A DNA stretch of 64,000 bases. Source: an uncultured Clostridium sp. GTDB taxonomy: Bacteria; Bacillota; Clostridia; TANB77; CAG-508. Shown here one piece after another: positions 34,584 to 56,508 of this stretch. How positions within the stretch are numbered: the first letter of the stretch is position 1; each line of letters begins with the position of its first letter. The DNA lies in assembly GCA_947087745.1 (NCBI GenBank), contig CAMUDX010000002.1, positions 17,151 through 81,150 of the forward strand, given 5' to 3'. A program made the position numbers and the translations under genes. The notes under the pieces were generated by a model. That model saw only the letters and a program-made list of their open reading frames with translations. It made no database searches and had not been told where the DNA came from.

Positions 34584-34606
34584 ATATAAATTCCTCCCTA
34601 CAAATT

Positions 34607-36202: not shown

Positions 36203-36216
36203 TTCAAAAAAGAAGA

Positions 36217-37696: not shown

Positions 37697-37740
37697 AAAA
37701 TTCCTCTCATTTCTCCTGTGAAAAAATGAGAGGTTTGTAG
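37697..37740 (-). terminator. rho-independent terminator of the sigma-like gene
   Basis: 10-bp stem cctctcattt/aaatgagagg, followed on the minus strand by a T-rich run. Confidence 0.55.
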
Positions 37741-37750
37741 GATTAAATTT

Positions 37751-38747: not shown

Positions 38748-38770
38748 GTTTACATAATTTTTATGGTATA
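38748..38770 (+). promoter_or_regulatory. candidate sigma-A promoter with extended -10 (TGGTATAAT) for the Spo0A-like gene
   Basis: TTTACA ... TGGTATAAT, about 45 bp upstream of the ATG at 38816, with an AGGAGGG RBS. Confidence 0.4.
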
Positions 38771-38815
38771 ATGTTATCGAATTTATAATATAGACATTTG
38801 TAGGAGGGTTTCCAG

Positions 38816-39535
38816 ATGCAGAAAGTCCTTATTGCTAATCCTAATGTTGAGCAAAGAATAAGGCTTTGTCAACAGCTTGCAAATGATAAAAGGTTAGAAG
38901 TAATAGAAACAGCTGATGGAAAAACTGCTTTAGAAAAATATCTTGATATTAAACCTAATGTATTAGTTTTAGATTCTTGCCTAAAAGATATAAATTGTAT
39001 TGAAATAATTGATAGATTATCTACAAATATTGCAGATAAGAAAAATAACAACATTATATTAACAGCTCAAAAAGAAGAAAATTTGAACTTGTCTAATGCT
39101 GCTAGAATATACAAGGTAATATATGATGATGAAAATTTTAATGACTTTTATAGTACAATTAACGAAATGTATCTTTTTGGAGAATATGAAGAATTAACTA
39201 ACGAGGAACTCGATTTATTATTTTTGACATTAAAAATTCCTTTAAATTCAAATGGAACTAATTACATAAGAGAAGCTATTTTTGAATGCTACTACTACCC
39301 TGACTTACAGAAAAAATTGAAAGATATTTTTACTATAATTGGACAAAGACATAACAAGCCTAATTCGGCAATACGATCAAGTTTTAGAACTGCATTAGAA
39401 CGATTAAATATGTATAGAGATACTATCAACTGCCCTATTATGCAATATTTTGATATTGAAGAAAATATAACCCCAAAAGATTTTTTAGAAATTGCAGTAA
39501 TGTATTTACATCTACAAAAAGGAAAGAAGAAATAA
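38816..39535 (+). CDS. Spo0A-like regulator (degenerate receiver domain plus Spo0A C-terminal DNA-binding domain)
   Basis: C-terminal NYIREAIFECYYYPDLQKKLKDIFTIIGQRHNKPNSAIRSSFRTALERLNMYRD...KDFLEIAV parallels the Spo0A_C signature (YLREAI...LYP.IA...T...VERAIRHAIE...PTNSEFIA). The N-terminal REC-like fold lacks the canonical acidic pocket (ANPN). Confidence 0.55.
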   Translation: MQKVLIANPNVEQRIRLCQQLANDKRLEVIETADGKTALEKYLDIKPNVLVLDSCLKDINCIEIIDRLSTNIADKKNNNIILTAQKEENLNLSNAARIYKVIYDDENFNDFYSTINEMYLFGEYEELTNEELDLLFLTLKIPLNSNGTNYIREAIFECYYYPDLQKKLKDIFTIIGQRHNKPNSAIRSSFRTALERLNMYRDTINCPIMQYFDIEENITPKDFLEIAVMYLHLQKGKKK

Positions 39536-39567
39536 GTTTTGTAAAAACCTATTCCTTCTTTTTTAGT

Positions 39568-40758
39568 TTATGCGTTCTCTTTTAATTCTTTATACCCTTG
39601 CATTATATTGTCTATTTCCATATTGTTTATTGGCTCTGATACAAATGTATTCAAATTTCTTCCCATTAGATTATATGCTGTTTTCATATATTCATCACTA
39701 ACATTATCACTTGTAATTATATTGAATATTGGCACATTATCTTTTAAACTTTTTTTTGATTTCCTCATTATTTCCATACTGTCCATATTGTCTAAATTCA
39801 TTTTTGCAAAAACCATTTCTGGCTTTGATTCTATAATTTTGTTATATGTTTCTTTTCCGTCTGCTGCTGTGTCTACTAATTCAACATAGTCTAAACCTTT
39901 TATTGTATCTGCTATTTTATTTCTTATTTCTTCGTTATTATGGGCAATTAGAATCTTTATCTTTTTCATTCTATTCTCCTCTAATTCATACATAAATTCT
40001 ACTGGATTTTGGTATAGTGCATTTCCCTTTTTTACATCTACACCATGTTCCGTTTTTATTATATCTCCATTTGCTATTAGCAAAGTATATTTATCTTCCA
40101 TGTCCTTTTCTTGTCTAAAGTCTGTTTCTCCTATATTTCCAAAATTTCTAAATACATTTTTAGTTTGCTCAAATTCTGTGTCTGTTATTGCAAATTCGTC
40201 TTTATTTTTCTCTGCTGTTTCTCGAAGTGGCATAAATTTAAAGAACTTCCACTTGCTAATATTATAATTGTTTAGGAACTCTCCTAGCTGCTCCATTTCA
40301 TTTATATTTTTCTTGCTAACTACTGTATTTATATTTACTTTAAGATTTTTGTCTTTAACATAGTCTAGTATAACTTTAACCTCTTCAAAATGATTTCTAC
40401 CTCTTCCTAGTTCTTCATTTGTATCATCATTTATTGTATCTAATGACAATGTCAAAGAATCTAAATAATCTAAAATCTCTCGCATATTTTCATTTTGTGC
40501 TAGTACCATTCCGTTTGTTATCAATTTATTCTTTATTCCATTTTCTTTTGATATTTTTAATAGTTCTTTTAAGTTTGGATATAGTAGTGCTTCTCCCCCT
40601 GTCCAAGTAATGTTGTTTACTCCATCTTTAATCAAATTATTTAATATCTCTTTATTTTCTTCATAAGTAAGATCGTTAATACCTAAAAATCTGTGGCAAT
40701 ATTTACAATTTTGATTACATTTTGTTGTAATATTCCAACAAACTCTCTTTTTTTGCAT
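39568..40758 (-). CDS. radical SAM enzyme fused to a C-terminal (pseudo-)receiver domain
   Basis: N-terminal CNQNCKYC (CxxxCxxC) with GGEALL. The C-terminal ~120 aa show a REC-like pattern (KIKILIAHNNEEI...MVFAKMNL...IITSDN) in which the phospho-acceptor Asp appears replaced. Confidence 0.65.
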   Translation of the reverse strand: MQKKRVCWNITTKCNQNCKYCHRFLGINDLTYEENKEILNNLIKDGVNNITWTGGEALLYPNLKELLKISKENGIKNKLITNGMVLAQNENMREILDYLDSLTLSLDTINDDTNEELGRGRNHFEEVKVILDYVKDKNLKVNINTVVSKKNINEMEQLGEFLNNYNISKWKFFKFMPLRETAEKNKDEFAITDTEFEQTKNVFRNFGNIGETDFRQEKDMEDKYTLLIANGDIIKTEHGVDVKKGNALYQNPVEFMYELEENRMKKIKILIAHNNEEIRNKIADTIKGLDYVELVDTAADGKETYNKIIESKPEMVFAKMNLDNMDSMEIMRKSKKSLKDNVPIFNIITSDNVSDEYMKTAYNLMGRNLNTFVSEPINNMEIDNIMQGYKELKENA

Positions 40759-41887: not shown

Positions 41888-42946
41888 TTATTTGTTATTT
41901 TGTTTTGAATATAATAAATCTGCTTTTCTAATATCAAACTTTGTTCCAATTTTTAGGTTAAGTGTTTTTACAAATTCTATTAGCTGTTCTATATTTTGTT
42001 CTGCATTTTCTACTTTCTTTACTTCTAGCTCTATAAATATTCCTAAATCTTTAACATCTTGAATATATGCTATAAACTCATCATTCTCATACATATAATT
42101 TTTATCAATCATATTTAAAAATCTTGTATAACCTAATATATTCAAATGCTTTTCTGCTTCTTCTATGCTCATAACTTTTAATACAGACTTTTCTGTACTT
42201 ATCTCAAACCCATTGCTATTATGATTTCTTCTTTTACAAACTATCTTTTTGTCATCTTCATTAACATATCTAATAATTAGTGTATCTGTAATTCTTCCAT
42301 TTTTAGGTGCAAATTCATTAGTTCTATCATTTTTCATATATATATCATCTAATGTAAATTCTTCTATATATTTGAATCCTTTTTCTTCTAAAACTTTAAC
42401 AATAGTTGATATTTCTTCAAAGACTTCACAAGTTATTTCTATATCTTTTATAAACTTTGTTTCTTTTTTATCACTATCATATATTCCTACTTTTTCTTCT
42501 AATAGTTTAAAATTACAACTTATATCCACAAAAAATTTCTTTTTATCTACTGTTACCATTTTATATAATTTCTTTGCCACATTTCTTATTTTTTCTGTAT
42601 TTTGTTGTATAAAATTGTTTTGTGCCATTAACAAGTTTTTATATTTAATATCTTTAATTAAATTAAAATCTATTGGTGTTAGTACATCTCCTACAACTGG
42701 AATCATATTATTGAATCTAATAATTCCATAGTCTTGTCCTATTTTTATGTATGTTGGATTATCACTATATTTTTTGTGTGTACTTTTAGGCGAGAATAAA
42801 GGTGCAAAATATTTGATATTATCTATCTCAATAATAACACCTATATATGGTCTTTTTTGATTTTTATTGTATGGAACTTTATCATCAAATTGATATAAAT
42901 AATCAATATATTTATCATCTATGTTATAAAATTTTAATCTATCCAT
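41888..42946 (-). CDS. type III toxin-antitoxin ToxN/AbiQ-family endoribonuclease fused to a C-terminal CYTH-like domain
   Basis: Residues 1-~160 align with AbiQ/ToxN (KFYNIDDKYIDYLYQFDDKVP...YIGVIIEIDNIKYFAPLFSPK...CNFKLLEEK vs AbiQ KFYTISSKYIEYLKEFDDKVP...FIGIVLEIQGHKYLAPLTSPK...CDFSLLEEK). The following ~190 aa have a CYTH/CyaB-like pattern (LIIRYV...KRR...E...LGYTRF...DLGIFIELEV). Start at MDRLKFYN, with an AAGGAGAG RBS. Confidence 0.7.
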   Translation of the reverse strand: MDRLKFYNIDDKYIDYLYQFDDKVPYNKNQKRPYIGVIIEIDNIKYFAPLFSPKSTHKKYSDNPTYIKIGQDYGIIRFNNMIPVVGDVLTPIDFNLIKDIKYKNLLMAQNNFIQQNTEKIRNVAKKLYKMVTVDKKKFFVDISCNFKLLEEKVGIYDSDKKETKFIKDIEITCEVFEEISTIVKVLEEKGFKYIEEFTLDDIYMKNDRTNEFAPKNGRITDTLIIRYVNEDDKKIVCKRRNHNSNGFEISTEKSVLKVMSIEEAEKHLNILGYTRFLNMIDKNYMYENDEFIAYIQDVKDLGIFIELEVKKVENAEQNIEQLIEFVKTLNLKIGTKFDIRKADLLYSKQNNK

Positions 42947-42965
42947 ATTCTCTCCTTTAACAAAA

Positions 42966-43000
42966 ATTGTGGGATGCTTATATAAAAACACCCCACATAG
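42966..43000 (-). terminator. hairpin between the ToxI-like repeats and the toxin gene (attenuator/terminator typical of type III TA loci)
   Basis: tgtggg(a)tg...ca(c)cccaca imperfect inverted repeat, placed exactly where ToxIN and AbiQ loci carry a terminator. Confidence 0.5.
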
Positions 43001-43007
43001 TTTTTAT

Positions 43008-43116
43008 CGCTTACTTAGGGCTAAGCTACTCCCATTTTTTATCTTCACTTAGGGCTTGAATACTCCCATTTTTTATTGTCAACTTTTGGCTTGACTACTC
43101 CCATTTGAAAATATTT
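43008..43116 (-). ncRNA. ToxI-like antitoxin RNA: three tandem ~36-nt repeats upstream of the ToxN-family gene
   Basis: Direct repeats ttacttagggctaagctactcccattttttatc / ttcacttagggcttgaatactcccattttttattgtc / aacttttggcttgactactcccatttgaaaatattt, with no interspersed spacers. Confidence 0.65.
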
Positions 43117-43141
43117 GCATATTTTCTTTGTTAGTATATTC

Positions 43142-43170
43142 ATTATACACTATTTTTATGCTATTGTCAA
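43142..43170 (-). promoter_or_regulatory. consensus sigma-70 promoter (TTGACA-17-TATAAT) driving the ToxI-like repeats and the toxin
   Basis: The minus strand reads TTGACAatagcataaaaatagtgTATAAT, about 25 nt upstream of the first repeat. Confidence 0.7.
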
Positions 43171-43227: not shown

Positions 43228-44742
43228 TTATCTGTCTATATCATCCATAGAACTACTTTTATCAATTTGATGTAATTGTTCTAATTGTTTTTCTGTAATA
43301 TTTATTACTTTACCACAACAAGGTTTAAAATCTTTATTTCCATAAACGAGCCAAATAATATTTTCTCTTTTTAGATCTTCCTTTGGCATAGTTCCAGGAC
43401 AAGGATAACCATCAGTAAAAACAATTTTGTTTATTTCTCTTTTTTTAGTAAATGATCTAACTGCTAAATCCCAATCTTCTGTCCATGCTGAATGTCCTCT
43501 AGCTCCTCTAGGTATAGTAAAATTATCTATGTCTTTTACATTTTTTATATCTACAAGTCCCCAAAATTGCTCATTAAAGCATCCTACTCTTAGTTTTGAT
43601 TGTTCTAATAATGGTTTTAGTTGCCTTAGAAATGATTTTACTAATTCTAAATCTACTGAGCCAGAAACATCAATCATAACTTCTGTTTCAGCTTCATCTT
43701 CAATATCATTTTCTTCTAATCTATATGCATAATTATTTTCTGCAATAGAACGCCTTTGACTCCAAATTGTTTCTGTTTTTTCTACTTCTCTTCGTAATAA
43801 AAGTTTCCAATCAATTTCTTCTTTACTTTTTCCTATATCCCCTAATTCTATTGTTCCTTTATCGGTACTTCGTATATCTTTTTCAGTCTTTTCGCGTCTA
43901 GATTTGAATTTTTCTCGTTTTTCTTTTCTATTATCTTCAAATTCTCCTTTTTCATCAAAATCTATATCTGTATGTTCTTCTCCAGTTTGCTCTTGTTCTT
44001 GTCCCTGTTCTTGTTTTTGCGAATTTTCATCTTGCCTTTGTCCTTTCTTTTGAGAATTTTGCTGCTCTTTAAATGCTTCTTCCCATAAACTATGGTCATC
44101 TCCTTGACTTTTACTTTTATCTGAATTTTGATTTTCAGTTTGCTCCGCATTTTCATTATTACTATCTTGTTCTTGATTTTGCTCATTGCCTTGTTTATTA
44201 TCTTGTTCATCGCTCTGTCCACTTCCTTGCTGATTATCTTGCTCTTGTTCTTGTCCATCTCCTTGTTCTTGGTCTTGGTTTTGATTTTGATTATTCTTTT
44301 GCTCTTGTTCTTTCTTTTCTTTTTCTTGCAATAATTTTTGATAAAATTCTTCTGCTGAATAATCTAGTGCTTCTGGCATGTTTACATATCCTTCTTTAAT
44401 TGTAAATCCATCTCTTTCTAAATTTGCATTTATAATAGCATCAGTTGCTATATTCCAAAGTTCTGGATCTCTTTTTACTCCACTTTTATCCTTTAATCTA
44501 TACATGTGCATAAATTTTATATGCATTATTTCATGTGCTATTGTAAATAATCTATCATTCTCACTTAAACTTGCAAAATAGTTAGGATCAACATATATAT
44601 TTTTTCCATCAGTTGCTGCTGTATGATATTTCAAGTTGTCTTTAAATTCAATATTAGCTACTGCTATTTCACTACCAAATCTAGGATATTTTGCTAGCAT
44701 TTTCCTTTTTGCATCATAAATCAAATCTGTATTAGCACTCAT
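43228..44742 (-). CDS. DUF2201-type protein: N-terminal putative metallopeptidase (HExxH) domain, acidic Q/E/K-rich linker, C-terminal VWA-like domain
   Basis: TIAHEIMHIKFMH (HExxH) in the N domain; a long low-complexity QEQEQ/KEKREK linker; a C-terminal VWA-like region (MIDVSGSVD). This is the usual partner of MoxR/AAA_5 ATPases. Confidence 0.7.
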   Translation of the reverse strand: MSANTDLIYDAKRKMLAKYPRFGSEIAVANIEFKDNLKYHTAATDGKNIYVDPNYFASLSENDRLFTIAHEIMHIKFMHMYRLKDKSGVKRDPELWNIATDAIINANLERDGFTIKEGYVNMPEALDYSAEEFYQKLLQEKEKKEQEQKNNQNQNQDQEQGDGQEQEQDNQQGSGQSDEQDNKQGNEQNQEQDSNNENAEQTENQNSDKSKSQGDDHSLWEEAFKEQQNSQKKGQRQDENSQKQEQGQEQEQTGEEHTDIDFDEKGEFEDNRKEKREKFKSRREKTEKDIRSTDKGTIELGDIGKSKEEIDWKLLLRREVEKTETIWSQRRSIAENNYAYRLEENDIEDEAETEVMIDVSGSVDLELVKSFLRQLKPLLEQSKLRVGCFNEQFWGLVDIKNVKDIDNFTIPRGARGHSAWTEDWDLAVRSFTKKREINKIVFTDGYPCPGTMPKEDLKRENIIWLVYGNKDFKPCCGKVINITEKQLEQLHQIDKSSSMDDIDR

Positions 44743-44792: not shown

Positions 44793-47018
44793 TTATTCTC
44801 TTTCATGTTCTTCATTCATAACTTCTTTAGAAACTCTTGTTAAATACGAACTATACATTTGTCCTATATCTGTATATGCTGCTATTCCATCTTTTGCATA
44901 TTCTTCTGTTTCTTTTCCTGTATGTAATGCTAAAGACATTTCTTGCAGTTCACTTATTTTCTCCATCTTTCTTTCATCATTTCCAGCCCAATATATATCA
45001 TATATTGATAAATATTCTGGATCACAATGTTTTCTTATGAATTCTCTACAACTTTCTACTTGTGTTTCATCTGCTGTTATCAATGCTGTCATATATGCAA
45101 ATCTTTCGCTTATATCTCTTGGTAAGTCTGCTTGTGTATATCCTTCTCCCATTCCTTTTGTTACTTCTTCTGGAGTCAATGTTGGAAGGTTATAAAAATC
45201 AAAAAATTCTGCTGACCATTCTTCTCTAAGTTTTGAGCTTATTGACCTTTGGATTATATCTTCTACATCTTTTCCTTCATATTTTCCTTGTTCCAAATTT
45301 CTTTCAAAATTATATAAGGTATTTGAAATTGATGTCCAACCACGAGGATCGTTTGTTCTTCCTTTACATCCATTTCTATCTAAATGTTCTTCTCCTACAT
45401 CTGGCTCTTCGTAGAAATATCCTATGTCTTGTATATCTTCGCTTTTTCCAGAATTGTTGTATTTTGATAACATATATCCTATTACTGATGGGTGTATTTT
45501 TTGTGGAATTGCATATTCTGTTATCCATTCTCCTACTTTTGGCTCCATATCTAGGATATGGTCAAATCTTTTTTCTAGTGGCTCTGCTAAATCTTCTGCT
45601 ACACTTGAATATTTCTTTTGGTTTCCTGTTGCTACAACTACTACATTGTCTGGTAATTTTAGTCCTTTTCCTATCTCTACCATTCTATTTAATACTAATG
45701 TATATACTAAACTTTGAACTGCTGGTTTTACATTTAAAAGCTCATCTAACATTATTACAACTTTTTTATCGCTTTCTTTTGACCTTTCATATACTGTATC
45801 TGCTACATCATATATATTTTGTATATTTTCTTCAACTAATTTTCTTTCTTCTTCTGTTGCTTCTTGCATAATAGCTGTTTTTGCAAAGTCTGGTGGTATG
45901 CTTTGTCCTGTTTGTAAATTTACTGATCCTACCACTTTTTCTGGGAACATGTTATTTGTTAATTTCATATAAATTAAGTCTGGATATAATGTTTTTATTC
46001 TTTCTGTTTTTCCTATTCCAGATGGTCCTCTTAATAATACTGACTCTCCTGCTTCAATCCAATTTTGTATTATTTCTGTATCTGTCATTCTGCTTCTATC
46101 AGCAGTTTTTGTTTTGTCTGGATTTAATTTTTGTAATCTAGATTTTCTTGGCTTAAATTCTTCTGTTTCTTCTGTTTGCTCTCCTAATGTTATTGTACCT
46201 CTTGATTGTTCTAAATCTCTTGCCAAATATCTATCCATAAATGTTTTTATATCTGTTTTATCAAAATCTCTTGTATGATAATTACTCTCTTTATTAAATT
46301 GAACTCCTGCAAATATTAGTTTTTCAGTTATCATCATACGAGATTTTTCATCTACAATCCATTTAACTGGAGAAACTTCTATCCATACATTATCTCCATC
46401 TTTATATTGTTCTCCATTTGAAAGTGTAAAGTTACTTCCATCATAATATGAATTAGCTTCAACTCTTACATATCTTTTTCCATTATATTCATATTCTTGA
46501 TGAGTTTGTGGCTCAAATGTTGTATCATATTCAGTGTATCGTGTTGAATCTGTTGTATAACTATTTCTTGTTTTTGAAAGTCTGCCACTTTTATATTCTC
46601 TTTCTAATTTTTCTTGCATCTCTTTTGATACTGCTTTTTGTGGATAATATCCATACTCTACTTCAAGAATACCATCTCTTGCTCTTTTCCCACTCTCTCC
46701 GTTCGTGGGGATATTAGAGATTGATGAGAACGGCAAAGCTGGGCGAGCCCCACCATTGCGAGTGTTAACATTGTAGTAATCGCTATCACCACTATCGTAA
46801 ACCACGCGCGCGTCATTATCTCCGTCATCTGACTTTGTCCAATACCAACCTGTTCTCCCCTCTAAAGAACTATCATTATCTACATGATAATCAGAAACCC
46901 ATCCACCAAGCAATACAGAAAAATCTGTTATGGCTGCCTGTGTTCCTCTTTTTTCTAATATATCTAATTTATCATTACCAAAGCATTGTTCTTCGGTTAA
47001 AAAAGTAAAATTACTCAT
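44793..47018 (-). CDS. DGR target protein 1: N-terminal C-type-lectin/DUF1566-like variable domain (contains VR1) fused to a MoxR/AAA_5-type AAA+ ATPase
   Basis: VR1 (46739-46816) encodes residues ~68-93. The upstream segment (LTEEQ...GRTGWYWTKSDD...ARVV...RNGGARPAL) resembles short CLec/DUF1566 folds. Walker A VLLRGPSGIGKTERI, Walker B VVIMLDELLN and an AAA_5-like sensor region. No signal peptide. Confidence 0.8.
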   Translation of the reverse strand: MSNFTFLTEEQCFGNDKLDILEKRGTQAAITDFSVLLGGWVSDYHVDNDSSLEGRTGWYWTKSDDGDNDARVVYDSGDSDYYNVNTRNGGARPALPFSSISNIPTNGESGKRARDGILEVEYGYYPQKAVSKEMQEKLEREYKSGRLSKTRNSYTTDSTRYTEYDTTFEPQTHQEYEYNGKRYVRVEANSYYDGSNFTLSNGEQYKDGDNVWIEVSPVKWIVDEKSRMMITEKLIFAGVQFNKESNYHTRDFDKTDIKTFMDRYLARDLEQSRGTITLGEQTEETEEFKPRKSRLQKLNPDKTKTADRSRMTDTEIIQNWIEAGESVLLRGPSGIGKTERIKTLYPDLIYMKLTNNMFPEKVVGSVNLQTGQSIPPDFAKTAIMQEATEEERKLVEENIQNIYDVADTVYERSKESDKKVVIMLDELLNVKPAVQSLVYTLVLNRMVEIGKGLKLPDNVVVVATGNQKKYSSVAEDLAEPLEKRFDHILDMEPKVGEWITEYAIPQKIHPSVIGYMLSKYNNSGKSEDIQDIGYFYEEPDVGEEHLDRNGCKGRTNDPRGWTSISNTLYNFERNLEQGKYEGKDVEDIIQRSISSKLREEWSAEFFDFYNLPTLTPEEVTKGMGEGYTQADLPRDISERFAYMTALITADETQVESCREFIRKHCDPEYLSIYDIYWAGNDERKMEKISELQEMSLALHTGKETEEYAKDGIAAYTDIGQMYSSYLTRVSKEVMNEEHERE
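46739..46816 (-). other. DGR variable repeat VR1
   Basis: 78 bp; 70/78 identical to the TR. All 8 mismatches fall at TR positions that are A on the coding (minus) strand. Flanked by GC-rich clamps (gacgcgcgcgtgg ... ggtggggctcgcccag). Confidence 0.9.
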
Positions 47019-47057
47019 ATACTACTCCCTTATATTTCTTATGCTAATTACTGTAGC

Positions 47058-47423
47058 TTAAAATGCAATAACACAGAAATTATATAGCTCCTTTGAAATG
47101 TTTTTTAATCCTTCTCTATCTTTAACAGTTAAAACTACAATCATATCTTTTGGTAATTTATATCCATAAAATTCTCTATCTTTAACTATTTGATAATATT
47201 TATTTTGTGTACTTTCATTCAATTTGTCTATTTCAGATATAATAAAATAATCAAGTTCTTCTTTATTAGAGATTTTCTCTTTAAAAATTGTAAGCAATTC
47301 ACTATCATTAGAATCAGCATTCACAATAATTTTTGAATCTAATTCTTTACAATCTTCATTTTGTATTACAACACAGGTAGCAAGGCATCCTTTTTGTAAT
47401 TCTATCAATTCTTTATTAATCAT
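47058..47423 (-). CDS. hypothetical protein (121 aa) between the two DGR target genes
   Basis: ORF only; no motif recognised. Confidence 0.35.
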   Translation of the reverse strand: MINKELIELQKGCLATCVVIQNEDCKELDSKIIVNADSNDSELLTIFKEKISNKEELDYFIISEIDKLNESTQNKYYQIVKDREFYGYKLPKDMIVVLTVKDREGLKNISKELYNFCVIAF

Positions 47424-47424
47424 A

Positions 47425-47901
47425 TTAAATTTTATCCCCTTTCGTAATACTAAAAAAACTCAATATTTTATTAAGAAACTTTTTTAATATATTTTCTTTT
47501 TTATATTCTACTATATTTTTTTCTATCACATTTTCATTTTGAATTATTTTATTTTCTTTTTTGTTTTTAAAAATATCATTTACATTATATGTTTCTTTTA
47601 TTTTTTCTTTTTTCATATTGTTTTCATGTATTATATTTTTATATTTTTCATGTTCTTCTTTATTACACCACCATGTAATATATATAAAGCCTAAAAGTTC
47701 TTTAGTTTGTTTTCTTAAATTAAAGCCATTGATTGGCTGTTCATGATTAAATTTAGATTTATAGCTTTTACTTGAAATATCAGTTAAAAACTTTATAAAA
47801 CTTTGTGGTATTCTTGCAACATCTTCTTTATTTGTATGATTTAGTATGTCTAATACTTCAACTGCTGCTTCACTATATTCAGCTTCTCTCATTTTCTTCA
47901 C
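47425..47901 (-). CDS. hypothetical protein (158 aa) between the two DGR target genes
   Basis: ORF only; its start overlaps the end of target gene 2 by 23 nt. Confidence 0.35.
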   Translation of the reverse strand: MKKMREAEYSEAAVEVLDILNHTNKEDVARIPQSFIKFLTDISSKSYKSKFNHEQPINGFNLRKQTKELLGFIYITWWCNKEEHEKYKNIIHENNMKKEKIKETYNVNDIFKNKKENKIIQNENVIEKNIVEYKKENILKKFLNKILSFFSITKGDKI

Positions 47902-50110
47902 TCCTAACTTCTTCTTTAGAATCTCTTGTTAAATACGAACTATACATTTGTCCTATATCTGTATATGCTGCTATTCCATCTTTTGCATATTCTTCTGTTT
48001 CTTTTCCTGTATGTAATGCTAAAGACATTTCTTGCAGTTCACTTATTTTCTCCATCTTTCTTTCATCATTTCCAGCCCAATATATATCATATATTGATAA
48101 ATATTCTGGATCACAATGTTTTCTTATGAATTCTCTACAACTTTCTACTTGTGTTTCATCTGCTGTTATCAATGCTGTCATATATGCAAATCTTTCGCTT
48201 ATATCTCTTGGTAAGTCTGCTTGTGTATATCCTTCTCCCATTCCTTTTGTTACTTCTTCTGGAGTCAATGTTGGAAGGTTATAAAAATCAAAAAATTCTG
48301 CTGACCATTCTTCTCTAAGTTTTGAGCTTATTGACCTTTGGATTATATCTTCTACATCTTTTCCTTCATATTTTCCTTGTTCCAAATTTCTTTCAAAATT
48401 ATATAAGGTATTTGAAATTGATGTCCAACCACGAGGATCGTTTGTTCTTCCTTTACATCCATTTCTATCTAAATGTTCTTCTCCTACATCTGGCTCTTCG
48501 TAGAAATATCCTATGTCTTGTATATCTTCGCTTTTTCCAGAATTGTTGTATTTTGATAACATATATCCTATTACTGATGGGTGTATTTTTTGTGGAATTG
48601 CATATTCTGTTATCCATTCTCCTACTTTTGGCTCCATATCTAGGATATGGTCAAATCTTTTTTCTAGTGGCTCTGCTAAATCTTCTGCTACACTTGAATA
48701 TTTCTTTTGGTTTCCTGTTGCTACAACTACTACATTGTCTGGTAATTTTAGTCCTTTTCCTATCTCTACCATTCTATTTAATACTAATGTATATACTAAA
48801 CTTTGAACTGCTGGTTTTACATTTAAAAGCTCATCTAACATTATTACAACTTTTTTATCGCTTTCTTTTGACCTTTCATATACTGTATCTGCTACATCAT
48901 ATATATTTTGTATATTTTCTTCAACTAATTTTCTTTCTTCTTCTGTTGCTTCTTGCATAATAGCTGTTTTTGCAAAGTCTGGTGGTATGCTTTGTCCTGT
49001 TTGTAAATTTACTGATCCTACCACTTTTTCTGGGAACATGTTATTTGTTAATTTCATATAAATTAAGTCTGGATATAATGTTTTTATTCTTTCTGTTTTT
49101 CCTATTCCAGATGGTCCTCTTAATAATACTGACTCTCCTGCTTCAATCCAATTTTGTATTATTTCTGTATCTGTCATTCTGCTTCTATCAGCAGTTTTTG
49201 TTTTGTCTGGATTTAATTTTTGTAATCTAGATTTTCTTGGCTTAAATTCTTCTGTTTCTTCTGTTTGTTCTCCTAAAGTTATTGTACCTCTTGACTGTTC
49301 TAAATCTCTTGACAAGTATCTATCCATAAATGTTTTTATATCTGTTTTATCAAAGTCTTTGGTATGGTAATCTCTAGTATGATTAAATTGTACTCCAGAG
49401 AATATCAATTTATCTGTTAGCATGACTTTTTCTCTTTCATCAACTAACCATTTTACAGGAGAAACTTCTACCCATACATTATCTCCATCTCTGTATTGTT
49501 CTCCATTTGAAAGTGTAAATCTATTTCCTCCAAAATCTGAATTAGCTTCAACTCTTACATATCTTTTACCATTATATTCATATTCTTCATGTTGTTTTGC
49601 TAAAAATTTTTCGCCATAAGCATCATATTTTCTTGAATCTGTTGTATAACTATTTCTTGTTTTGGATATACTACCACTTCTATATGCTCTTTCTAGTCTT
49701 TCTTGCATGTCTTTTGATGCTGCTTTTTGTGGGTAATATCCATACTCTACTTCAAGAATACCATCTCTTGCTCTTTTCCCACTCTCTCCGTTCGTGGGGA
49801 TATTAGAGATTGATGAGAACGGCAAAGCTGGGCGAGCCCCACCATCGCGAGTGAGAACATGGGAGCAATGCCTATGACCATTATCGTTAACCACGCGCGC
49901 GTCATTATCTCCATCATCTGATTTTGTCCAATAATATCCTGTTCTTCCCTCCAAAGAACTATCATTATCTATATGATTGTTGTCAGAAACATAAGCACCT
50001 AAAAGAATAGAGAAATCTGTTATTGCTGCTTTTGTTCCTCTCTTCTCTAATATATCTAATTTATCACTTCCAAAATATTGTTCTTCGGTTAAAAAAGTAA
50101 AATTACTCAT
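47879..50110 (-). CDS. DGR target protein 2 (paralog of 44793..47018; contains VR2)
   Basis: Same architecture as target 1. VR2 encodes ...DARVVNDNGHRHCSHVLTRDGGARP..., versus TR-encoded DARVVNDNGNRNYNNVNKRNGGARP. Confidence 0.8.
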   Translation of the reverse strand: MSNFTFLTEEQYFGSDKLDILEKRGTKAAITDFSILLGAYVSDNNHIDNDSSLEGRTGYYWTKSDDGDNDARVVNDNGHRHCSHVLTRDGGARPALPFSSISNIPTNGESGKRARDGILEVEYGYYPQKAASKDMQERLERAYRSGSISKTRNSYTTDSRKYDAYGEKFLAKQHEEYEYNGKRYVRVEANSDFGGNRFTLSNGEQYRDGDNVWVEVSPVKWLVDEREKVMLTDKLIFSGVQFNHTRDYHTKDFDKTDIKTFMDRYLSRDLEQSRGTITLGEQTEETEEFKPRKSRLQKLNPDKTKTADRSRMTDTEIIQNWIEAGESVLLRGPSGIGKTERIKTLYPDLIYMKLTNNMFPEKVVGSVNLQTGQSIPPDFAKTAIMQEATEEERKLVEENIQNIYDVADTVYERSKESDKKVVIMLDELLNVKPAVQSLVYTLVLNRMVEIGKGLKLPDNVVVVATGNQKKYSSVAEDLAEPLEKRFDHILDMEPKVGEWITEYAIPQKIHPSVIGYMLSKYNNSGKSEDIQDIGYFYEEPDVGEEHLDRNGCKGRTNDPRGWTSISNTLYNFERNLEQGKYEGKDVEDIIQRSISSKLREEWSAEFFDFYNLPTLTPEEVTKGMGEGYTQADLPRDISERFAYMTALITADETQVESCREFIRKHCDPEYLSIYDIYWAGNDERKMEKISELQEMSLALHTGKETEEYAKDGIAAYTDIGQMYSSYLTRDSKEEVRSEENERS
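47905..49320. repeat. ~1.4-kb segment 100% identical to 44819-46230 (tandem duplication / gene conversion between the two DGR target genes); approximate extent
   Basis: Identical antisense ORF pairs (44837..45040 = 47926..48129; 45233..45871 = 48322..48960; 45881..46141 = 48970..49230) and identical C-terminal ~480 aa of the two target proteins. The N-terminal ~260 aa are only ~75% identical. Confidence 0.85.
49828..49905 (-). other. DGR variable repeat VR2
   Basis: 78 bp; 12 mismatches to the TR, all at TR coding-strand adenines; same GC-rich flanks as VR1. Confidence 0.9.
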
Positions 50111-50230: not shown

Positions 50231-51349
50231 TTACAGTTTTTGTGGAAAAGTTTCATTTTTTAATTTTTTACTTTCTTTTGTGTCTTTGATATGGTTATAA
50301 AATGCATTTTTTCTAATATAAACATATTCCTCATCAACAATATTTTTTTCTCTTAATTTATGCAATGTTTTTAAATGTTTTTTTAATCTTTGTTTAGATG
50401 AAACTCGTAATTTTCTTGTTATACTGCCATCTTCATTTAAGATATGCCTATATCCTAAAAAATCTATTCCATTTTTTACAATTCCTATTTGTGTTTTTTG
50501 ATTTAGTGATAGCTTTAACTCATGTTCACATTTCTCCTTTATTTTTGAAAGTGAATATTGTAAATAACTTTTATCTCTATGAACCAAAATCATGTCGTCC
50601 ATATAACGAATATACCCTTTTACTCTTAAATCTTCTTTAACATATCTGTCGATTACATTTAAATATAATAGTGCAAACCATTGACTAGATTGATTTCCAA
50701 GTGGTAAGCCAACATCTGCATTATTAGGCTGTTCTTTTACTAATTTTTCTATCATCCACATCTCATCACTTGAAAAATTAATCTTTTTTAGTAAATTTAA
50801 TAGCACTTCGTGATCTATGCTTTGAAAATACTTTCTTATATCACATTTTAGAAAAAATATTTTATTGTTTTGTTCTTTTCTATATTCATTTCTTAAAAAA
50901 TTTTCTAATCGTTTTATAGCAAATGTTGTTCCTTTTTCTTTTCTGCATGCTGCATTATCATATATTAGTTTTCTATCAATTTTATCTCTTAGTGCCACAT
51001 CACAAAAACACTTTATAACAACTCTATCTCTAAAAGGTAATGCTTCTATAACTCTTTCTTTTGGCTCATATATTAAAAATTCTTTATACTTTCCTAATTT
51101 ATATTTCTTTGACATTATATCGTTCATAAGATTACTTATATTACTTGATAAATTAGCTTCAAATCGTATCACTTCTCCTTTATGTTGTTTAGATTTTCTA
51201 CAACCTTTATATGCATCATATAAATTTTCAAATGTAAAAATTTCTTTTAATTCCATATTGTATTTCCTCCTAAAAAAAGAACGCTCCTTAAAACTTGCAA
51301 AAAATAGATTATCTATTCGTTGCTCGTGTAAGCGTTCATATTCTTCCAC
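50231..51349 (-). CDS. DGR reverse transcriptase
   Basis: RT motifs: LKCDIRKYFQSIDH (motif 2), GLPLGNQSSQWFALLYLNVIDRYV (the DGR-specific [LI]GxxxSQ motif 4), RYMDDMILV (YxDD). 372 aa with no maturase or endonuclease domains. Confidence 0.85.
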   Translation of the reverse strand: MEEYERLHEQRIDNLFFASFKERSFFRRKYNMELKEIFTFENLYDAYKGCRKSKQHKGEVIRFEANLSSNISNLMNDIMSKKYKLGKYKEFLIYEPKERVIEALPFRDRVVIKCFCDVALRDKIDRKLIYDNAACRKEKGTTFAIKRLENFLRNEYRKEQNNKIFFLKCDIRKYFQSIDHEVLLNLLKKINFSSDEMWMIEKLVKEQPNNADVGLPLGNQSSQWFALLYLNVIDRYVKEDLRVKGYIRYMDDMILVHRDKSYLQYSLSKIKEKCEHELKLSLNQKTQIGIVKNGIDFLGYRHILNEDGSITRKLRVSSKQRLKKHLKTLHKLREKNIVDEEYVYIRKNAFYNHIKDTKESKKLKNETFPQKL

Positions 51350-51480
51350 CGCACTATTTCTTTAGCGGTTAGAAAAGAGAAAAATTCCTTCACTTTAAAA
51401 TACTGATATATTTTCCTTAAAATATATTTCTCTGATTCTTTATTTTAAATCCACTTTTATAGGATTTATCAAAAGTGAAT

Positions 51481-51558
51481 CTGGGCGAGCCCCACCATTG
51501 CGTTTGTTAACATTGTTGTAATTTCTATTACCATTATCGTTAACCACGCGCGCGTCAT
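51481..51558 (-). other. DGR template repeat (TR)
   Basis: 78-bp non-coding segment between avd and the RT, homologous to VR1 and VR2. On the minus strand it is rich in AAY codons (aac gat aat ggt aat aga aat tac aac aat gtt aac aaa cgc aat). Confidence 0.9.
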
Positions 51559-51629: not shown

Positions 51630-52211
51630 CTAACTTCGTTTTTTCCATCTTTCATCATCACTCTTTTTCCATGCTACTGTTAAATTAATTGCTTCTGATA
51701 ATTGAATAGAAATTTGTTTGTATTGTTTCTTTAATATGCATCCAGAATTTTCTGCCACCATAGAAACATATCCTAGTAATTTTAATTTTACTATTGCCTC
51801 TTTTTGTAATTCTTCTCTTTTTGTTTTCTTTTCTACTGCATCCATTCTAATAAAATTAGCTTCTAATAAGCACTCTAATGTATCAAGACAATAGTTCTGC
51901 ATTCTATTTACAAATACTCCTCTAAATTTTTTTGGAGATTTTTCTGTAACTGCAATTATATAAGTTGCTAGTTTCTTTACTACTGTTATAACCATTAAAT
52001 CATTTGCATTAAATGGCAACTTATTCACTTGTTCTAATTCATTGTCATTTTCTACGCTTTCTTCAATTTCTTTTTTATTAAATCTTTTATTCTCAGCAGT
52101 AGCAATAGCTTGCTTCACTGCTACTTTATCCTCAATACTGTTTTCAGCTCCGTTAAAATCTTCTAATTTTTTAGGTATTTTCAAATTACTATCTCTACTA
52201 ACTTGTAACAT
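51630..52211 (-). CDS. Avd-like accessory variability determinant (four-helix-bundle, IVS-protein family), with possible N-terminal extension
   Basis: The C-terminal ~120 aa (from MVITVVKKLATYIIAVTEKSPKKFRGVFVNRMQ...LLGYVSMVAENSG...LSEAINLTVAWKK) fit the basic four-helix Avd/23S-rRNA-IVS pattern (..kfPK.er..l...a.....K...L...W.K). It sits immediately upstream of the TR. The first ~70 aa of the ORF may not be translated. Confidence 0.55.
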   Translation of the reverse strand: MLQVSRDSNLKIPKKLEDFNGAENSIEDKVAVKQAIATAENKRFNKKEIEESVENDNELEQVNKLPFNANDLMVITVVKKLATYIIAVTEKSPKKFRGVFVNRMQNYCLDTLECLLEANFIRMDAVEKKTKREELQKEAIVKLKLLGYVSMVAENSGCILKKQYKQISIQLSEAINLTVAWKKSDDERWKKRS

Positions 52212-52279: not shown

Positions 52280-53260
52280 TTAAAGTTCTCCTTTGATTTT
52301 TGTTATCTTATTTAAAAGCTTATTGTACTCCTCTCTACTAACACCTGTTCCTTCTAAAGACTTCTGATACTTTTTTTCTTCTTTAGATAGATATTCTTCT
52401 GGATCATCATAATATAATAATAATTCTAACATCAAACACTCTATTTCACATTCTGTATGCTTTTTATTTTTTATTGTAATACCTAATTTTTTTAATATCC
52501 TTTTCTCCTTAAAACTTAACATTTTTCTTATATTTAAAATCTCTAAATTATGATATTTTTCATCCCATTCTAAATATTTTTTATTTTCTAATTCTCTTTT
52601 TATTCTTTTTAATTCTGTATATATTTCTTCATAATCATTAACTGGTTTCTTTATATATCCTGCTACTTCTAGTCCACCATTTATAACATCACTTTTGTTA
52701 TCTGCAGATATAACTAAAAATGCAATATCTTTATTTTTGGCAAAATAACTCTTTATAATATCTAAACCTGTATATCTATGATTACGCATAAGGTCTGTTA
52801 TTACAATTTCTGGCTTTAATTCTTCGATCATTTTTATTTCATCTTCATCACTATTAGCAATTCCTAATATTTCTATATCTTCATATTTTTCTAAAAATTC
52901 TTTTATAAATTTGCATATATGAATATTGTCATCTGCAATTATGATTTTAATTTTTCTACTCAATTTAATCTTTCCTTCCATTATTTCATTATTTATTTTC
53001 ACTATTGTTTCTTTAGCAGCAATAGTAAATATCTCCTTTAAATTTGTCTTTAAATAATTATTGGTATCCTCTACATATCCAAATATTTCTTCATATAATT
53101 TCTTTTTTGTTTCAGTATCAAAGTTATTATTTTCTTCAATATTCTGTAATATTTGATTTATTCTCTTTTGTTTATTACAGTTTAAAATTTTTAATAATAA
53201 TTCATCAAAATCTTGTTCTTCACAAATCTCATCTATTAAATCAAATTTTATCTCTTTCAT
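52280..53260 (-). CDS. receiver (REC) domain protein with uncharacterised N- and C-terminal regions
   Basis: Central KIIIADDNIHICKFIKEF...EIVITDLMRNHRYTGLDIIKSY...AFLVISADNKSD...GYIKKP has the CheY-like acidic pocket, phospho-acceptor Asp, T/S and K. Confidence 0.6.
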   Translation of the reverse strand: MKEIKFDLIDEICEEQDFDELLLKILNCNKQKRINQILQNIEENNNFDTETKKKLYEEIFGYVEDTNNYLKTNLKEIFTIAAKETIVKINNEIMEGKIKLSRKIKIIIADDNIHICKFIKEFLEKYEDIEILGIANSDEDEIKMIEELKPEIVITDLMRNHRYTGLDIIKSYFAKNKDIAFLVISADNKSDVINGGLEVAGYIKKPVNDYEEIYTELKRIKRELENKKYLEWDEKYHNLEILNIRKMLSFKEKRILKKLGITIKNKKHTECEIECLMLELLLYYDDPEEYLSKEEKKYQKSLEGTGVSREEYNKLLNKITKIKGEL

Positions 53261-53867: not shown

Positions 53868-54218
53868 ATGAAAAATGCAAAATCTTTAAAAAATATAGGA
53901 AACAATATTCAAATAGCTAGATTGAAAAAAGGATTAACACAAGAAGCTCTTTCTGAAAAATGTAATGTTTCAACTAAATATATAAGTGCAATAGAACGTG
54001 GAATATCCTCTGGAAGTATTTCACTTATAATTGATATTTGTAATGCTTTAGATGTAACACCTAATTATATTTTTAATAATACCATTAAAAATTCTAATGA
54101 TAATGTTGATATATTTCCTGTTGAAACTTCTTCAATTTACTTGAAATTAAAATCTGAGAATAAAAAATTTGTCGAAACTACAATACAACATTTATATTCT
54201 ATGCAAAATAAAAGATAA
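53868..54218 (+). CDS. XRE-family HTH transcriptional regulator
   Basis: IGNNIQIARLKKGLTQEALSEKCNVSTKYISAIERG is a Cro/C1 HTH. RBS AAGGGGGA upstream. Confidence 0.7.
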   Translation: MKNAKSLKNIGNNIQIARLKKGLTQEALSEKCNVSTKYISAIERGISSGSISLIIDICNALDVTPNYIFNNTIKNSNDNVDIFPVETSSIYLKLKSENKKFVETTIQHLYSMQNKR

Positions 54219-54242
54219 ATTTTTTGTATATATAATTAAGAA

Positions 54243-54285
54243 AAATCCGTATACTAAGCTTCATACGGATTTTTTATTATATATT
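54243..54285. terminator. bidirectional rho-independent terminator
   Basis: 12-bp stem aaaaatccgtat/atacggattttt with A/T runs on both sides, between the convergent HTH gene and the 54288..54515 gene. Confidence 0.65.
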
Positions 54286-54287
54286 TC

Positions 54288-54515
54288 TTACTTATTTCCT
54301 TTTACTAAAGTATTTAAAATACTACTATACTGATTACTTAATTTGGCAATATCTCCATTTTTAGTACTATGCGACATAATAAATTCTTCTATTTCTAATT
54401 CGCACTTTTTCAATTCTTCTTTGTTGTAATCTATATCTTCTACATTTATTCCTGCATTACTTAATAATTTTATATCTTCTTTTGAAAACTGCTTCATTAA
54501 ATTCATTTTCTTCAT
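54288..54515 (-). CDS. hypothetical small protein
   Basis: 75-aa ORF; overlaps the upstream ORF by 59 nt. Confidence 0.3.
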   Translation of the reverse strand: MKKMNLMKQFSKEDIKLLSNAGINVEDIDYNKEELKKCELEIEEFIMSHSTKNGDIAKLSNQYSSILNTLVKGNK

Positions 54516-54783
54516 TCTCCTTTTCCTTTATTGCTACCATAAGTTCATTGTCCTGTACTGTTCTATTTGCATTTTTATATGTAAATTTTGCACCTGTGAA
54601 ATAAACTTTATAATATAAGCCCTCTAATCTTGTTTTGCATAATGCTAAAAATTTGTCAACTTGTTCTTCTGATAAGTTGTGCTTAACTCTTAATTCATAG
54701 AAAGTAAAGACAATTTCATTTTCGTTTATTATCATTTTTTCATTGATAAGATTTTCTACAAATTGTGTTGTCATTGTTTCCAC
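54457..54783 (-). CDS. hypothetical protein
   Basis: 108-aa ORF downstream of the CHAP gene. Confidence 0.35.
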   Translation of the reverse strand: METMTTQFVENLINEKMIINENEIVFTFYELRVKHNLSEEQVDKFLALCKTRLEGLYYKVYFTGAKFTYKNANRTVQDNELMVAIKEKENEENEFNEAVFKRRYKIIK

Positions 54784-54892
54784 TCCATTCTGTATTGCAT
54801 TATATCATTTATTTTTCATTTTGTCTTTAAAAAACAAAAAAATCGCAGAAGAAATACTTATTTTTTATAAGTACCTCTTCTGCTTATTTTTA

Positions 54893-56497
54893 TTAGTACA
54901 TTGGTGTTCCATACCCTAAAATATCTAAACTATTTATGTTATAATCTCTCCTGCAACAACTATCACTTGAATTTCCTTCTATTGTATAAACTCTTCCATT
55001 TTCTGTTTTTTCTACTATGCCTACATGATCTGCTTGTCCACTTCTTACTCCTGTGTCCTTATCTGCCCAGTCAAAGAAAATTATATCCCCTGGTTTTGGA
55101 GTGAAACCTTTTTCTTTCCAAAGTCCACAAGTTCTAAACCAGTCAACACCCTCGCTCTGACATCCTGCAAATTTTGGAATTAGTCCTGCTTCAATGTAGC
55201 CACATTCATTGGCACACCACGAAACAAAACAAGCACACCATTCTACACGAGAATCAAAACCATACCAACTCCAATAAGGTTGTCCTCCAACATTTCCTAT
55301 TTGTGAAGCTGCAACTAGCACAATGTCATTGCTCCCAACAGATGAGCCATATATTACTGATGCCCACATATTAGCATATTTATTGTCTGTCAATTCTTGT
55401 AATTGTTTTCTTTGTTCTTGACTAAAATTGTATTTGTCTGCCATCTCATTTGCTGTTTTGCCTGTTATCGTAATATGCAACTTAACTTTTGTTACTGTTA
55501 CTCTATCAGTAGATGTTAAGCCTATTCTTATTTCTTCATGACTTTCTTCATCTTTTGTAAATGATATTTCATTCATTTCCCAAAAAATCTCTTTTAGAAG
55601 ATTAACCTTTTCATCATTTAAGGTTATAACATCTGCTTCATTATTACCATTGCTTAATTTAACTGTATATATTGCTAAAACATCTTTCCATTCGGCTCTA
55701 TGAGAATTTATATCGTACTCATCATAAGGATTATCTTTCTGTATTTGTGTTATCTTATTCATAAACTCTGTATTTAAGTCTGCTATTACTTGATTCATTG
55801 TTACTACTTGTTGTTGCCCATTTATAGTTATTGTGCTACCTGTATCTTCGCTTGAAAAGAAGATACCAAAAATTGAACTAACTAGCATTGCTATTAAGCA
55901 AACTACAATTATAATTAAAACAACGATCCAGCCACCTGCTACTAAAAATGCAATTAGTGCTTTTGTTGCAACTATAATAGCTTTTATTGCTGCTATTGTT
56001 GCTTTTATTCCTACTTTTATCGCCTTTACTGTTGCTTTAGCTGTTGCCTTTGCCATTTGTATTGCTCTTTTAGTGGCTTTGGCTGTTGTTTTTGCTACTT
56101 GTTTTGTTGTTTTAACTGTTCTGTCTGCTGTTTTTATTCCTTTTTTTGTAGTCTTTGTTGCATTTTTCATTTGTTTTACTACTTTTTTGGCATGATTTTT
56201 CTTTTTTATCGTTTTCATTTTTTGATTTACATTTTGTATATTTTGTACTGTTTTGTCAAAATTCTTCTTGCCATATTTATTAAGTCTGTAAACATTATTA
56301 GGAAGATTACTTGCTGTTTTTGATATTTTATTTATTGCGTATTCTGTTCCATTATTACTTGTTTCTTCTTGGTATGTTTCTTTTGTTTTGTCTTTTGCTT
56401 GTACTAATCTGTCTTTCATTTTTTCTGTTCCAACTACTGCTTTGTTAATTGTTTTTATTGTTCCTTTTTTACTCTGTTTAACTTTAATATCTGCCAA
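54893..56497 (-). CDS. conjugative-element cell-wall hydrolase with C-terminal CHAP (NlpC/P60-like) domain (Tn916 Orf14-like)
   Basis: K/T/A-rich N-terminal region and a TM helix. The C-terminus has SWYGFDSRVEWCACFVSWC...HVGIV, a CHAP-type Cys/His pair. Confidence 0.7.
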   Translation of the reverse strand: MADIKVKQSKKGTIKTINKAVVGTEKMKDRLVQAKDKTKETYQEETSNNGTEYAINKISKTASNLPNNVYRLNKYGKKNFDKTVQNIQNVNQKMKTIKKKNHAKKVVKQMKNATKTTKKGIKTADRTVKTTKQVAKTTAKATKRAIQMAKATAKATVKAIKVGIKATIAAIKAIIVATKALIAFLVAGGWIVVLIIIVVCLIAMLVSSIFGIFFSSEDTGSTITINGQQQVVTMNQVIADLNTEFMNKITQIQKDNPYDEYDINSHRAEWKDVLAIYTVKLSNGNNEADVITLNDEKVNLLKEIFWEMNEISFTKDEESHEEIRIGLTSTDRVTVTKVKLHITITGKTANEMADKYNFSQEQRKQLQELTDNKYANMWASVIYGSSVGSNDIVLVAASQIGNVGGQPYWSWYGFDSRVEWCACFVSWCANECGYIEAGLIPKFAGCQSEGVDWFRTCGLWKEKGFTPKPGDIIFFDWADKDTGVRSGQADHVGIVEKTENGRVYTIEGNSSDSCCRRDYNINSLDILGYGTPMY

Positions 56498-56508
56498 ACA
56501 AACACCTC

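Follow-up and report, generated by a model that had tools for sequence, protein, structure and literature searches.

Two tandem targets of one diversity-generating retroelement in a gut Clostridium: distinct variable heads and apparent gene conversion of a shared ATPase body

Background

Diversity-generating retroelements (DGRs) that serve more than one target are known from Legionella, Treponema and Thiohalocapsa (Wu et al. 2018, PMC5758913). The present study concerns a cassette of this kind from an uncultured gut Clostridium, located within a stretch of 64,000 nucleotides (nt) of contig CAMUDX010000002.1, hereafter the window. The cassette contains two tandem target genes, in each of which a variable head is joined to a MoxR-like ATPase body. 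As in the multi-target cassettes described previously, one reverse transcriptase (RT), one Avd protein and one template repeat (TR) are available to several variable repeats (VRs), change is adenine-specific, and the VR has the same GC-rich 3' end as the template. The cassette differs in that its targets are full-length tandem paralogues, the bodies of which appear to have evolved in concert while the heads have stayed distinct.

A second comparison is with the 'ternary' systems of conflict in which MoxR-vWA genes are diversified by a DGR (Kaur et al. 2020, PMC7159879; Dore et al. 2024, PMC10907252). These are predicted to be intracellular, and they couple a hypermutated lectin-type sensor to a peptidase, a vWA protein and an AAA+ ATPase of MoxR-like type. 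However, their variable C-lec or FGS domain is C-terminal in the vWA protein, with the ATPase as a separate gene, whereas the variable domain of the window is N-terminal to the ATPase, and its vWA protein carries a DUF2201_N HExxH peptidase. Ternary systems are hosted by cyanobacteria, actinobacteria and purple sulfur bacteria, rather than the unicellular gut Clostridia considered here. No VMAP-like gene was found at the locus, where two small proteins are encoded instead; this, and the position of the variable domain on the ATPase, means that the locus is analogous to the VMAP ternary family rather than a member of it.

A third comparison involves DUF6273, a C-type-lectin-like DGR domain with the VR at its C-terminal edge, which occurs among other placements at the N-terminus of phage 'tentaclins' (PMC10743442, PMC11792537). 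The heads of the window may resemble these gut-phage targets in presenting a surface beta-hairpin at the C-terminal edge of a small N-terminal domain of probable DUF6273/C-lec-like type, and like them are common in gut metagenomes. Tentaclins are virion proteins in which Ig-like domains come next, whereas a beta-rich domain and an AAA+ ATPase follow here; furthermore, no phage homologue of the window head was found and that head scored below the DUF6273 threshold. The ATPase body and partner protein also match PHROG 1297 and PHROG 1314 respectively, which represent the generic AAA_5 and DUF2201_N-DUF2201 gene pairs found in bacteria and large phages; such pairs have neither a variable head nor a DGR, and the two small genes are absent. 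Tandem paralogues of bacteria are known to evolve in concert, as in the case of tuf genes, rRNA operons and families of surface antigens. Those cases share with the present one a within-genome identity that exceeds identity between genomes, variable tract ends and the escape of segments under different selection, but here the escaping segment is the substrate of programmed hypermutation.

Multi-target DGRs, N-terminal variable domains of the DUF6273 type and DGR-coupled MoxR-vWA genes are known, while the fusion of head and ATPase and the discordance of head and body were not found in the literature searched. That search likewise returned nothing on gene conversion between DGR targets, or on DGRs in combination with DUF2201 or AAA_5. 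To our knowledge, the targets of DGRs in cellular genomes are largely without known function.

Results

An exact tract shared by two divergent targets

Every gene between 40 and 54 kb of the window lies on the minus strand. Target copy 1 ('B', adjoining the partner gene; 44793–47018, 741 amino acids (aa)) and target copy 2 ('A', adjoining the RT; 47879–50110, 743 aa) each encode a head and an AAA_5 ATPase and are related by a direct repeat with an offset of 3089. Homology spans from approximately 25 nt upstream of each ATG to nearly the stop codon, and therefore the duplicated unit comprised the gene and its ribosome-binding site. A preliminary description of this DNA had proposed that the two genes share an identical body, and this was borne out by an exact tract of 1,345 nt (44834–46178 in copy 1, equivalent to 47923–49267 in copy 2), which is highly improbable given the overall mismatch density between both genes (P ~3e-35). 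The tract starts in the low-confidence linker behind the head, where the predicted local distance difference test score (pLDDT) of the head model falls below 50 from residue 273, and stops 39 nt ahead of the stop codon. The identical protein segment was shorter than the C-terminal ~480 aa first estimated, covering 462 aa (residues 267–728), and the final 13 residues differ. In contrast to the bodies, the first 266 residues were 77.8% identical, close to the ~75% over ~260 aa given previously. The 5' leaders of copies 1 and 2 differ also, as do the heads and the last 13 codons.

Along the head, identity changes from block to block in mosaic fashion. Residues 1–67 were 87% identical in protein, with a synonymous divergence (dS) of 0.64 and a ratio of non-synonymous to synonymous divergence (dN/dS) of 0.13. 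Within the VR (residues 68–95) identity was 64% and dS was 0, with all of the 11 changes being non-synonymous. Identity rose to 97% at residues 96–130 (dS = 0.04, dN/dS = 0.29) and fell to 71% at residues 131–266 (dS = 0.45, dN/dS = 0.40), before the complete identity of residues 267–728, where nt 841–2185 contained no nucleotide difference at all.

A second exact tract of 112 nt (46645–46756, equivalent to 49734–49845; P ~8e-6) begins at the 3' end of the VR and reaches into the downstream coding sequence. Conservation between genomes at third codon positions was raised in this segment to 81–84%, compared with 66–75% in the flanks. The block may be a cis-acting homing signal that lets one RT, Avd and template address both genes, or it may be a separate conversion tract. 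Folding of the DNA behind the VR gave a weak hairpin signal (z = -1.8), and a cruciform is not claimed. Apparent third 'copies' of the repeat families D5 and D7 within the RT gene, at 71–76% identity, were judged to be due to chance.

Discordant histories of head and body

A scan of one genome per species identified 37 related loci (labelled L###), all from uncultured Clostridia of the human, mouse, rabbit or chicken gut. In a neighbour-joining tree of the head (nt 300–800), the B heads of the window, L001, L004 and L005 formed one clade with 100% bootstrap support, apart from all A heads; the A-type head of copy 2 was orthologous to the RT-proximal copies of the same three loci. In the body tree (nt 1000–2100), by contrast, paralogues paired within their own genome with 100% support in each of eight two-copy genomes. 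Bodies were 97% identical within L004, 98% within L005 and 93% within L019, compared with 85–94% to other genomes; therefore, the signal is independent of perfect identity and of repeat collapse by an assembler. The lengths of the exact tracts varied by genome (636, 659, 827, 1032, 1274, 1345, 1774, 1987, 2160 and 2182 nt), and that of L045 begins directly behind the VR. Such unequal lengths are therefore attributed to independent and repeated conversion events.

The discordant trees and unequal tracts indicate that the ATPase bodies have been homogenised by gene conversion, that is, through concerted evolution. The trees further imply that the duplication is old and that, across at least four species-level genomes, A heads are orthologous to A heads and B heads to B heads. 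The original suggestion of 'recent duplication or gene conversion' was thus half sustained: conversion of the body agrees with both trees and tract lengths, but recent duplication conflicts with head dS of 0.45–0.64 and with the orthology of heads. The heads had also been said to drift, which is contradicted by the evidence of substitution rates; outside the 12 adenine-coded codons, dN/dS of 0.13–0.40 places them under purifying selection. Their divergence is not explained by DGR mutagenesis.

The retroelement and its variable repeats

The RT gene (50231–51349, 372 aa) matches Pfam RVT_1 (E = 2.8e-16) and PHROG 1423 (E = 2.9e-95), and encodes LGNQSSQ at residue 217 and YMDD at residue 249, corresponding to the DGR-clade motifs [I/L]GxxxSQ and YxDD. 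The avd gene (51630–52211, 193 aa) matches PHROG 3206, 'Avd protein of DGR' (E = 8.6e-18); matches to Pfam bAvd (E = 9e-5) and NCBIfam DivGenRetAVD (E = 1.2e-6) were below the cut-offs of those models. Between the two genes lies the TR (51478–51558, minus strand, 81 nt), which aligns with the VRs of copy 1 (46736–46816, 81 nt, codons 68–94) and copy 2 (49825–49905, about codons 69–95). Every mismatch between template and VR fell at an adenine of the TR, both for copy 1 (9 of 9) and copy 2 (13 of 13), and the two genes do indeed carry different VR states. The GC-rich 3' end GGTGGGGCTCGCCCAG was common to the TR and both VRs, and a search of the window for AATGGTGGGGCTCGCCCAG returned these three sites and no further VRs. 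The in-frame translation of the TR is N D N G N R N Y N N V N K R N, with AAY codons being abundant, and ~4e12 peptides could be encoded per VR.

One fixed difference between TR and VR, CCCAG-A-TT against CCCAG-C-TT, ends the 3' homology in every genome. Mismatches at TR adenines were observed also in L004, L005, L009, L020, L021, L023 and L029. The proposal that a single TR serves both VRs was upheld, as no difference separates the copies over the GC-rich 3' end of the VR and the 90 nt that follow, and L004 and L005 repeat the pattern, each having one template and two VRs that differ almost exclusively at adenines. Hence, the locus is a bona fide DGR with two targets supplied from one template. 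Immediately 3' of the TR, at 51440–51480 on the minus strand, RNA folding predicted a 13-bp hairpin (AUCCACUUUU... / ...AAAAGUGGAU), in the region that holds the priming and spacer structure of DGR RNAs.

Diversity of the VRs was assessed between samples, by comparing metagenomic homologues that matched the A-type head (n = 22, at least 95% identical) or the B-type head (n = 8, at least 90%) over residues 100–266. All 22 A-type and 8 B-type homologues carried differing VRs. Entropy reached 1.5–3.3 bits at positions 74–76, 78–83, 85, 86 and 88 in both sets; these 12 positions are exactly the TR codons that contain adenine, while G77, V84 and R87, which have none in their TR codon, were invariant. 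Both VRs are therefore diversified in nature. Elsewhere in the head, residues 39–58 occurred as two haplotypes (WVSD-YHVD...W and YVSDNNHID...Y, in homologues P0003–P0136) that were shuffled among proteins of A-type over residues 100–266; therefore, short recombination tracts occur inside the heads also.

Some cassettes depart from this arrangement. Those of L045 (7001–13765) and L038–L041 have no avd or RT within 7–8 kb upstream, and the two VRs of L045 still differ from one another. In these cases the DGR may have been lost or may be acting in trans.

Domain content of the targets, partner and small proteins

The ATPase body exceeded the Pfam cut-off for AAA_5 (22 bits) in both copy 1 (27.8 bits) and copy 2 (27.6 bits), and copy 1 has a Walker A motif, GPSGIGKT, at residue 331 and a Walker B motif, VVIMLDE, at residue 420. 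It matches the phage ATPase family PHROG 1297 (E = 1e-32) and is ~25% identical to ATPases of large or jumbo phages; no sequence match for the body was found in PDB. The head was modelled by AlphaFold with a pLDDT of 88.7, and its variable residues are arranged around a beta-hairpin (strands 70–73 and 79–82). It belongs to an abundant family, the members of which occur alone, in tandem or fused with other domains; close homologues number more than 1,300, and clustering at 50% identity gave 1,850 groups of the head domain. The family comes from Clostridia of the human, mouse, rabbit and chicken gut. Among 64 more distant members of the family, five matched DUF6273 (best E = 2.1e-7). The head is likely to be C-type-lectin-like, with its first ~100 residues, which carry the VR, resembling DUF6273.

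The partner gene (43228–44742, 504 aa) had been described as a VWA protein. A vWA-like domain is present, but the protein is not a plain vWA protein, because it includes a HExxH metallopeptidase domain also (DUF2201_N, E = 3e-27; HEIMH zinc-peptidase motif at residues 70–74). It matches PHROG 1314 (E = 2e-44). The elements of a putative metal-ion-dependent adhesion site (MIDAS), DVSGS, WTED and FTDG (DVSGS...T...FTDG), are conserved in 12 homologues, and the alignment to the vWA-like model of DUF2201 spans positions 3–122 of 123. Between peptidase and vWA-like domains is a linker (43700–44330, residues ~140–300) of low complexity, rich in Q, E, N and D; it is encoded by degenerate tandem repeats of 6 nt and 33–36 nt, and homologues vary in length from 445 to 533 aa.

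Two conserved small genes separate the targets, one of 158 aa (47425–47901), which shares 23 nt with the end of copy 2, and one of 121 aa (47058–47423). Profile searches of Pfam, NCBIfam, PADLOC and PHROG gave no family match for the 158-aa protein, and the 121-aa protein produced a sub-threshold coiled-coil match alone. Both are syntenic in all related loci, with amino acid identities of 42–97% and 43–97% respectively.

Gene order and copy number in related genomes

Comparison with related genomes, which had been recommended for copy number, showed that the two-copy order recurs across species. A conserved five-gene module, in which the 158-aa and 121-aa genes stand between two targets and the partner comes last, was observed in L001, L004, L005, L006, L007, L017, L019 and L045, and two-copy loci were seen in at least nine independent assemblies from different studies and assemblers; L015 (7817–14746) has three tandem targets. 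In the single-copy loci L009, L016 and L020–L023, one target is followed by the 158-aa gene, then the 121-aa gene and then the partner. Therefore, the small genes and partner constitute one conserved module, and copy 1 of the window is an extra copy that was inserted ahead of the partner. It had been noted that only copy 1 is followed by the partner while copy 2 is followed by two small genes, which is literally correct but misleading, since these genes belong to a single module.

Several other arrangements were recorded. In L018 (4941–9352), the interval between the two targets contains no small genes. L003 (680–2905) is a low-coverage contig of RT, target and partner, in which an A head is combined with a B 3' flank; it looks like a recombinational deletion, or else a chimera generated when the assembly walked through the repeat. 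In the more distant relatives L038, L040 and L042–L044 (~60–70% identical), the head (279–283 aa) and ATPase (463–466 aa) are separate open reading frames (ORFs) with a 17-nt overlap, followed in the same operon by the same two small genes and partner; this could be a gene fusion or fission, or a frameshift site. The split pair is tandemly duplicated in L040.

Genomic context

Directly upstream of avd lies a gene for a 326-aa protein with a central, Spo0A-like receiver domain (52280–53260, minus strand; E = 1e-13), which is syntenic with the DGR in L001, L004, L005 and L029. It may be a regulator of the cassette.

The cassette is situated between conjugation genes (54.9–62.8 kb) and a tyrosine integrase (34988–36202), with toxin genes nearby, and its flanks (53868–62830 and 27284–40758) resemble an integrative conjugative element. 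On one side these comprise a CHAP-domain protein, a fusion of VirB4/TraG P-loop and sortase domains (1026 aa), PrgI and LPD28; on the other are the tyrosine integrase, MazF, HipA_C, an IS91 transposase and a radical-SAM/receiver fusion (39568–40758). A complete AbiQ/ToxN type III toxin-antitoxin unit (41888–43170, minus strand) stands immediately downstream of the cassette. The promoter of this unit (43170 to 43142) matches the consensus perfectly, and a 35-nt repeat is present in 3.1 copies (43001–43106), together with a terminator-like hairpin (42997–42968). The toxin ORF of 367 aa matches ToxN (E = 2e-44) and AbiQ (E = 1.5e-46) and carries an unusual C-terminal extension of ~200 aa. An AbiQ/ToxN abortive-infection toxin adjoins the cassette in several relatives also.

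Phage or plasmid origin was considered for the cassette and is unsupported, there being no close relatives in phage, plasmid or IMG/VR collections. Megablast of 43.2–53.3 kb against plasmid and phage collections gave no match, tblastn of the head against phages found none, and neither did a scan of IMG/VR. Rfam and tRNA scans of the window were without matches.

Discussion

A two-target DGR, an old duplication, conversion of the bodies and a proposed sensor-ATPase function in conflict provide, with good confidence, the best overall explanation of the locus. The DGR diversifies 12 codons in each of two tandem paralogues, through adenine-specific mutagenic retrohoming from one template. Each target would consist of an N-terminal ligand-binding head (residues 1 to ~270), a disordered linker and a MoxR-like AAA_5 ATPase body. 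Following an old duplication, the two heads have persisted as separate lineages, while the bodies have been overwritten repeatedly by intrachromosomal gene conversion, resulting in the present 1,345-nt tract. The bodies would stay interchangeable, both paralogues working with the same two small proteins and the same HExxH-peptidase/vWA protein, the MIDAS site of which would dock on the ATPase, and their high identity would make further conversion easier. That the two paralogues share these partners is probable, and such sharing would favour and maintain homogenisation of the bodies.

The heads would then represent two independently diversified intracellular sensors, with ligand binding triggering the ATPase, and thereby the activation or release of the peptidase-vWA partner. 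We infer that they are cytoplasmic ligand sensors because neither a signal peptide nor a membrane segment was found in the target and because the head is fused to an ATPase. By analogy, the cassette would be a sensor-ATPase system of conflict or defence. More tentatively, it may exemplify an undescribed conflict system that is widespread in gut Clostridia, in which DGR-varied lectin-like heads sit upon a MoxR-type ATPase that drives a metallopeptidase-vWA effector with two small adaptors, the bodies being kept interchangeable by conversion. Should this be true, several independently evolving 'receptor' heads would be mounted on one signalling machine, as a prokaryotic analogue of variable and constant regions.

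A number of observations weigh against this explanation, either in its functional or its historical part. The mechanism was derived from domain content and analogy. Of the DUF6273, Fib_succ_major, DUF1566 and FGE-sulfatase models, Fib_succ_major alone gave a hit to the window head, below its Pfam threshold (E = 0.014 over residues 26–72), and Foldseek of the head against PDB and BFVD returned no significant fold match. The AlphaFold model of residues 275–741, built on a shallow alignment of homologues that are 87–97% identical, had a pLDDT of 42.7 and was discarded. The C-terminal domain of the partner was sub-threshold against the vWA-like model of DUF2201 (E = 0.018; 9.5e-4 in L006). PADLOC 2.0, applied to the target, partner and small genes, gave only a marginal DolB match for the ATPase (E = 2.5e-5, no passing stretch). 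On the historical side, assembly from short reads can remove the bubbles that separate near-identical repeats, which makes 100% identity an upper bound; 18 of the 37 related loci end at a contig break inside the target gene; and in L006, L007 and L017 the copies are identical across the whole gene, VR included, which looks suspicious.

The foremost alternative concerns function and is rather unlikely in our judgement. Under it, the locus would be a MoxR-vWA module for chaperoning or maturation, like CbbQ-CbbO, NorQ-NorD and RavA-ViaA, the variable head of which recruits changing cellular or surface substrates. An AAA_5 ATPase with a vWA partner is indeed the generic architecture of such pairs, no model of a defence system matched, and some relatives are located between the housekeeping genes polA and glmS. 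Yet hypermutation of the binding site sits uneasily with a housekeeping client that does not change, and the partner has a peptidase domain. The cassette is, moreover, mobile and patchy, adjoining AbiQ/ToxN in several genomes, and a role in conflict has been proposed for DGR-diversified MoxR-vWA systems (PMC7159879, PMC10907252).

With respect to the history of the locus, an improbable alternative is that recombination with a diverged allele imported from another strain exchanged the 5' third of a recent whole-gene duplicate. Within one genome the pattern produced by such a head swap is indistinguishable from that of conversion; the locus lies within an element resembling an integrative conjugative element, and among metagenomic heads the haplotypes of residues 39–58 have been shuffled across the A-type and B-type classes. 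However, the swap must recur independently in each of eight genomes and, each time, restore the order of A upstream and B downstream with different breakpoints. By far the more parsimonious account is that the body was converted repeatedly.

It is very unlikely that the arrangement is an assembly artefact, in which a single target, or two with clearly different bodies, has been expanded or collapsed as a repeat. The frequency of contig ends within the target gene and the copies that are identical even in the VR would be consistent with this, as would L003, since an A head with a B 3' flank is the product expected of a walk through a shared repeat node. Against it stand the recurrence of the two-copy order in at least nine independent assemblies, the differences between the window copies in heads, 5' leaders and last 13 codons, the conservation of A and B heads each across species, and the non-identical bodies of L004, L005 and L019, which pair by genome nonetheless. 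Finally, a recent tandem duplication of the whole gene, with fast divergence of the heads by DGR or relaxed selection, would suit the tandem arrangement, the perfect 1,345-nt tract and the hypermutation of heads, but is scarcely credible beside head dS of 0.45–0.64 (dN/dS of 0.13–0.40) with no change in the 1,345-nt body, DGR changes that are limited to 12–14 adenine codons, and head lineages common to four species.

Conclusions

For metagenomics, the practical point is that this locus breaks or chimerises assemblies made from short reads, so that its copy number and identity should be accepted where long reads support them, and not otherwise. The association of DGR, MoxR and vWA genes is extended beyond multicellular bacteria. 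The binding site that is hypermutated here belongs to an ATPase, for which an extracellular location is excluded, and this supports the view that some DGRs diversify intracellular sensors. The discordance of head and body suggests a way in which a bacterium may multiply its variable receptor modules while the shared signalling module is kept constant.

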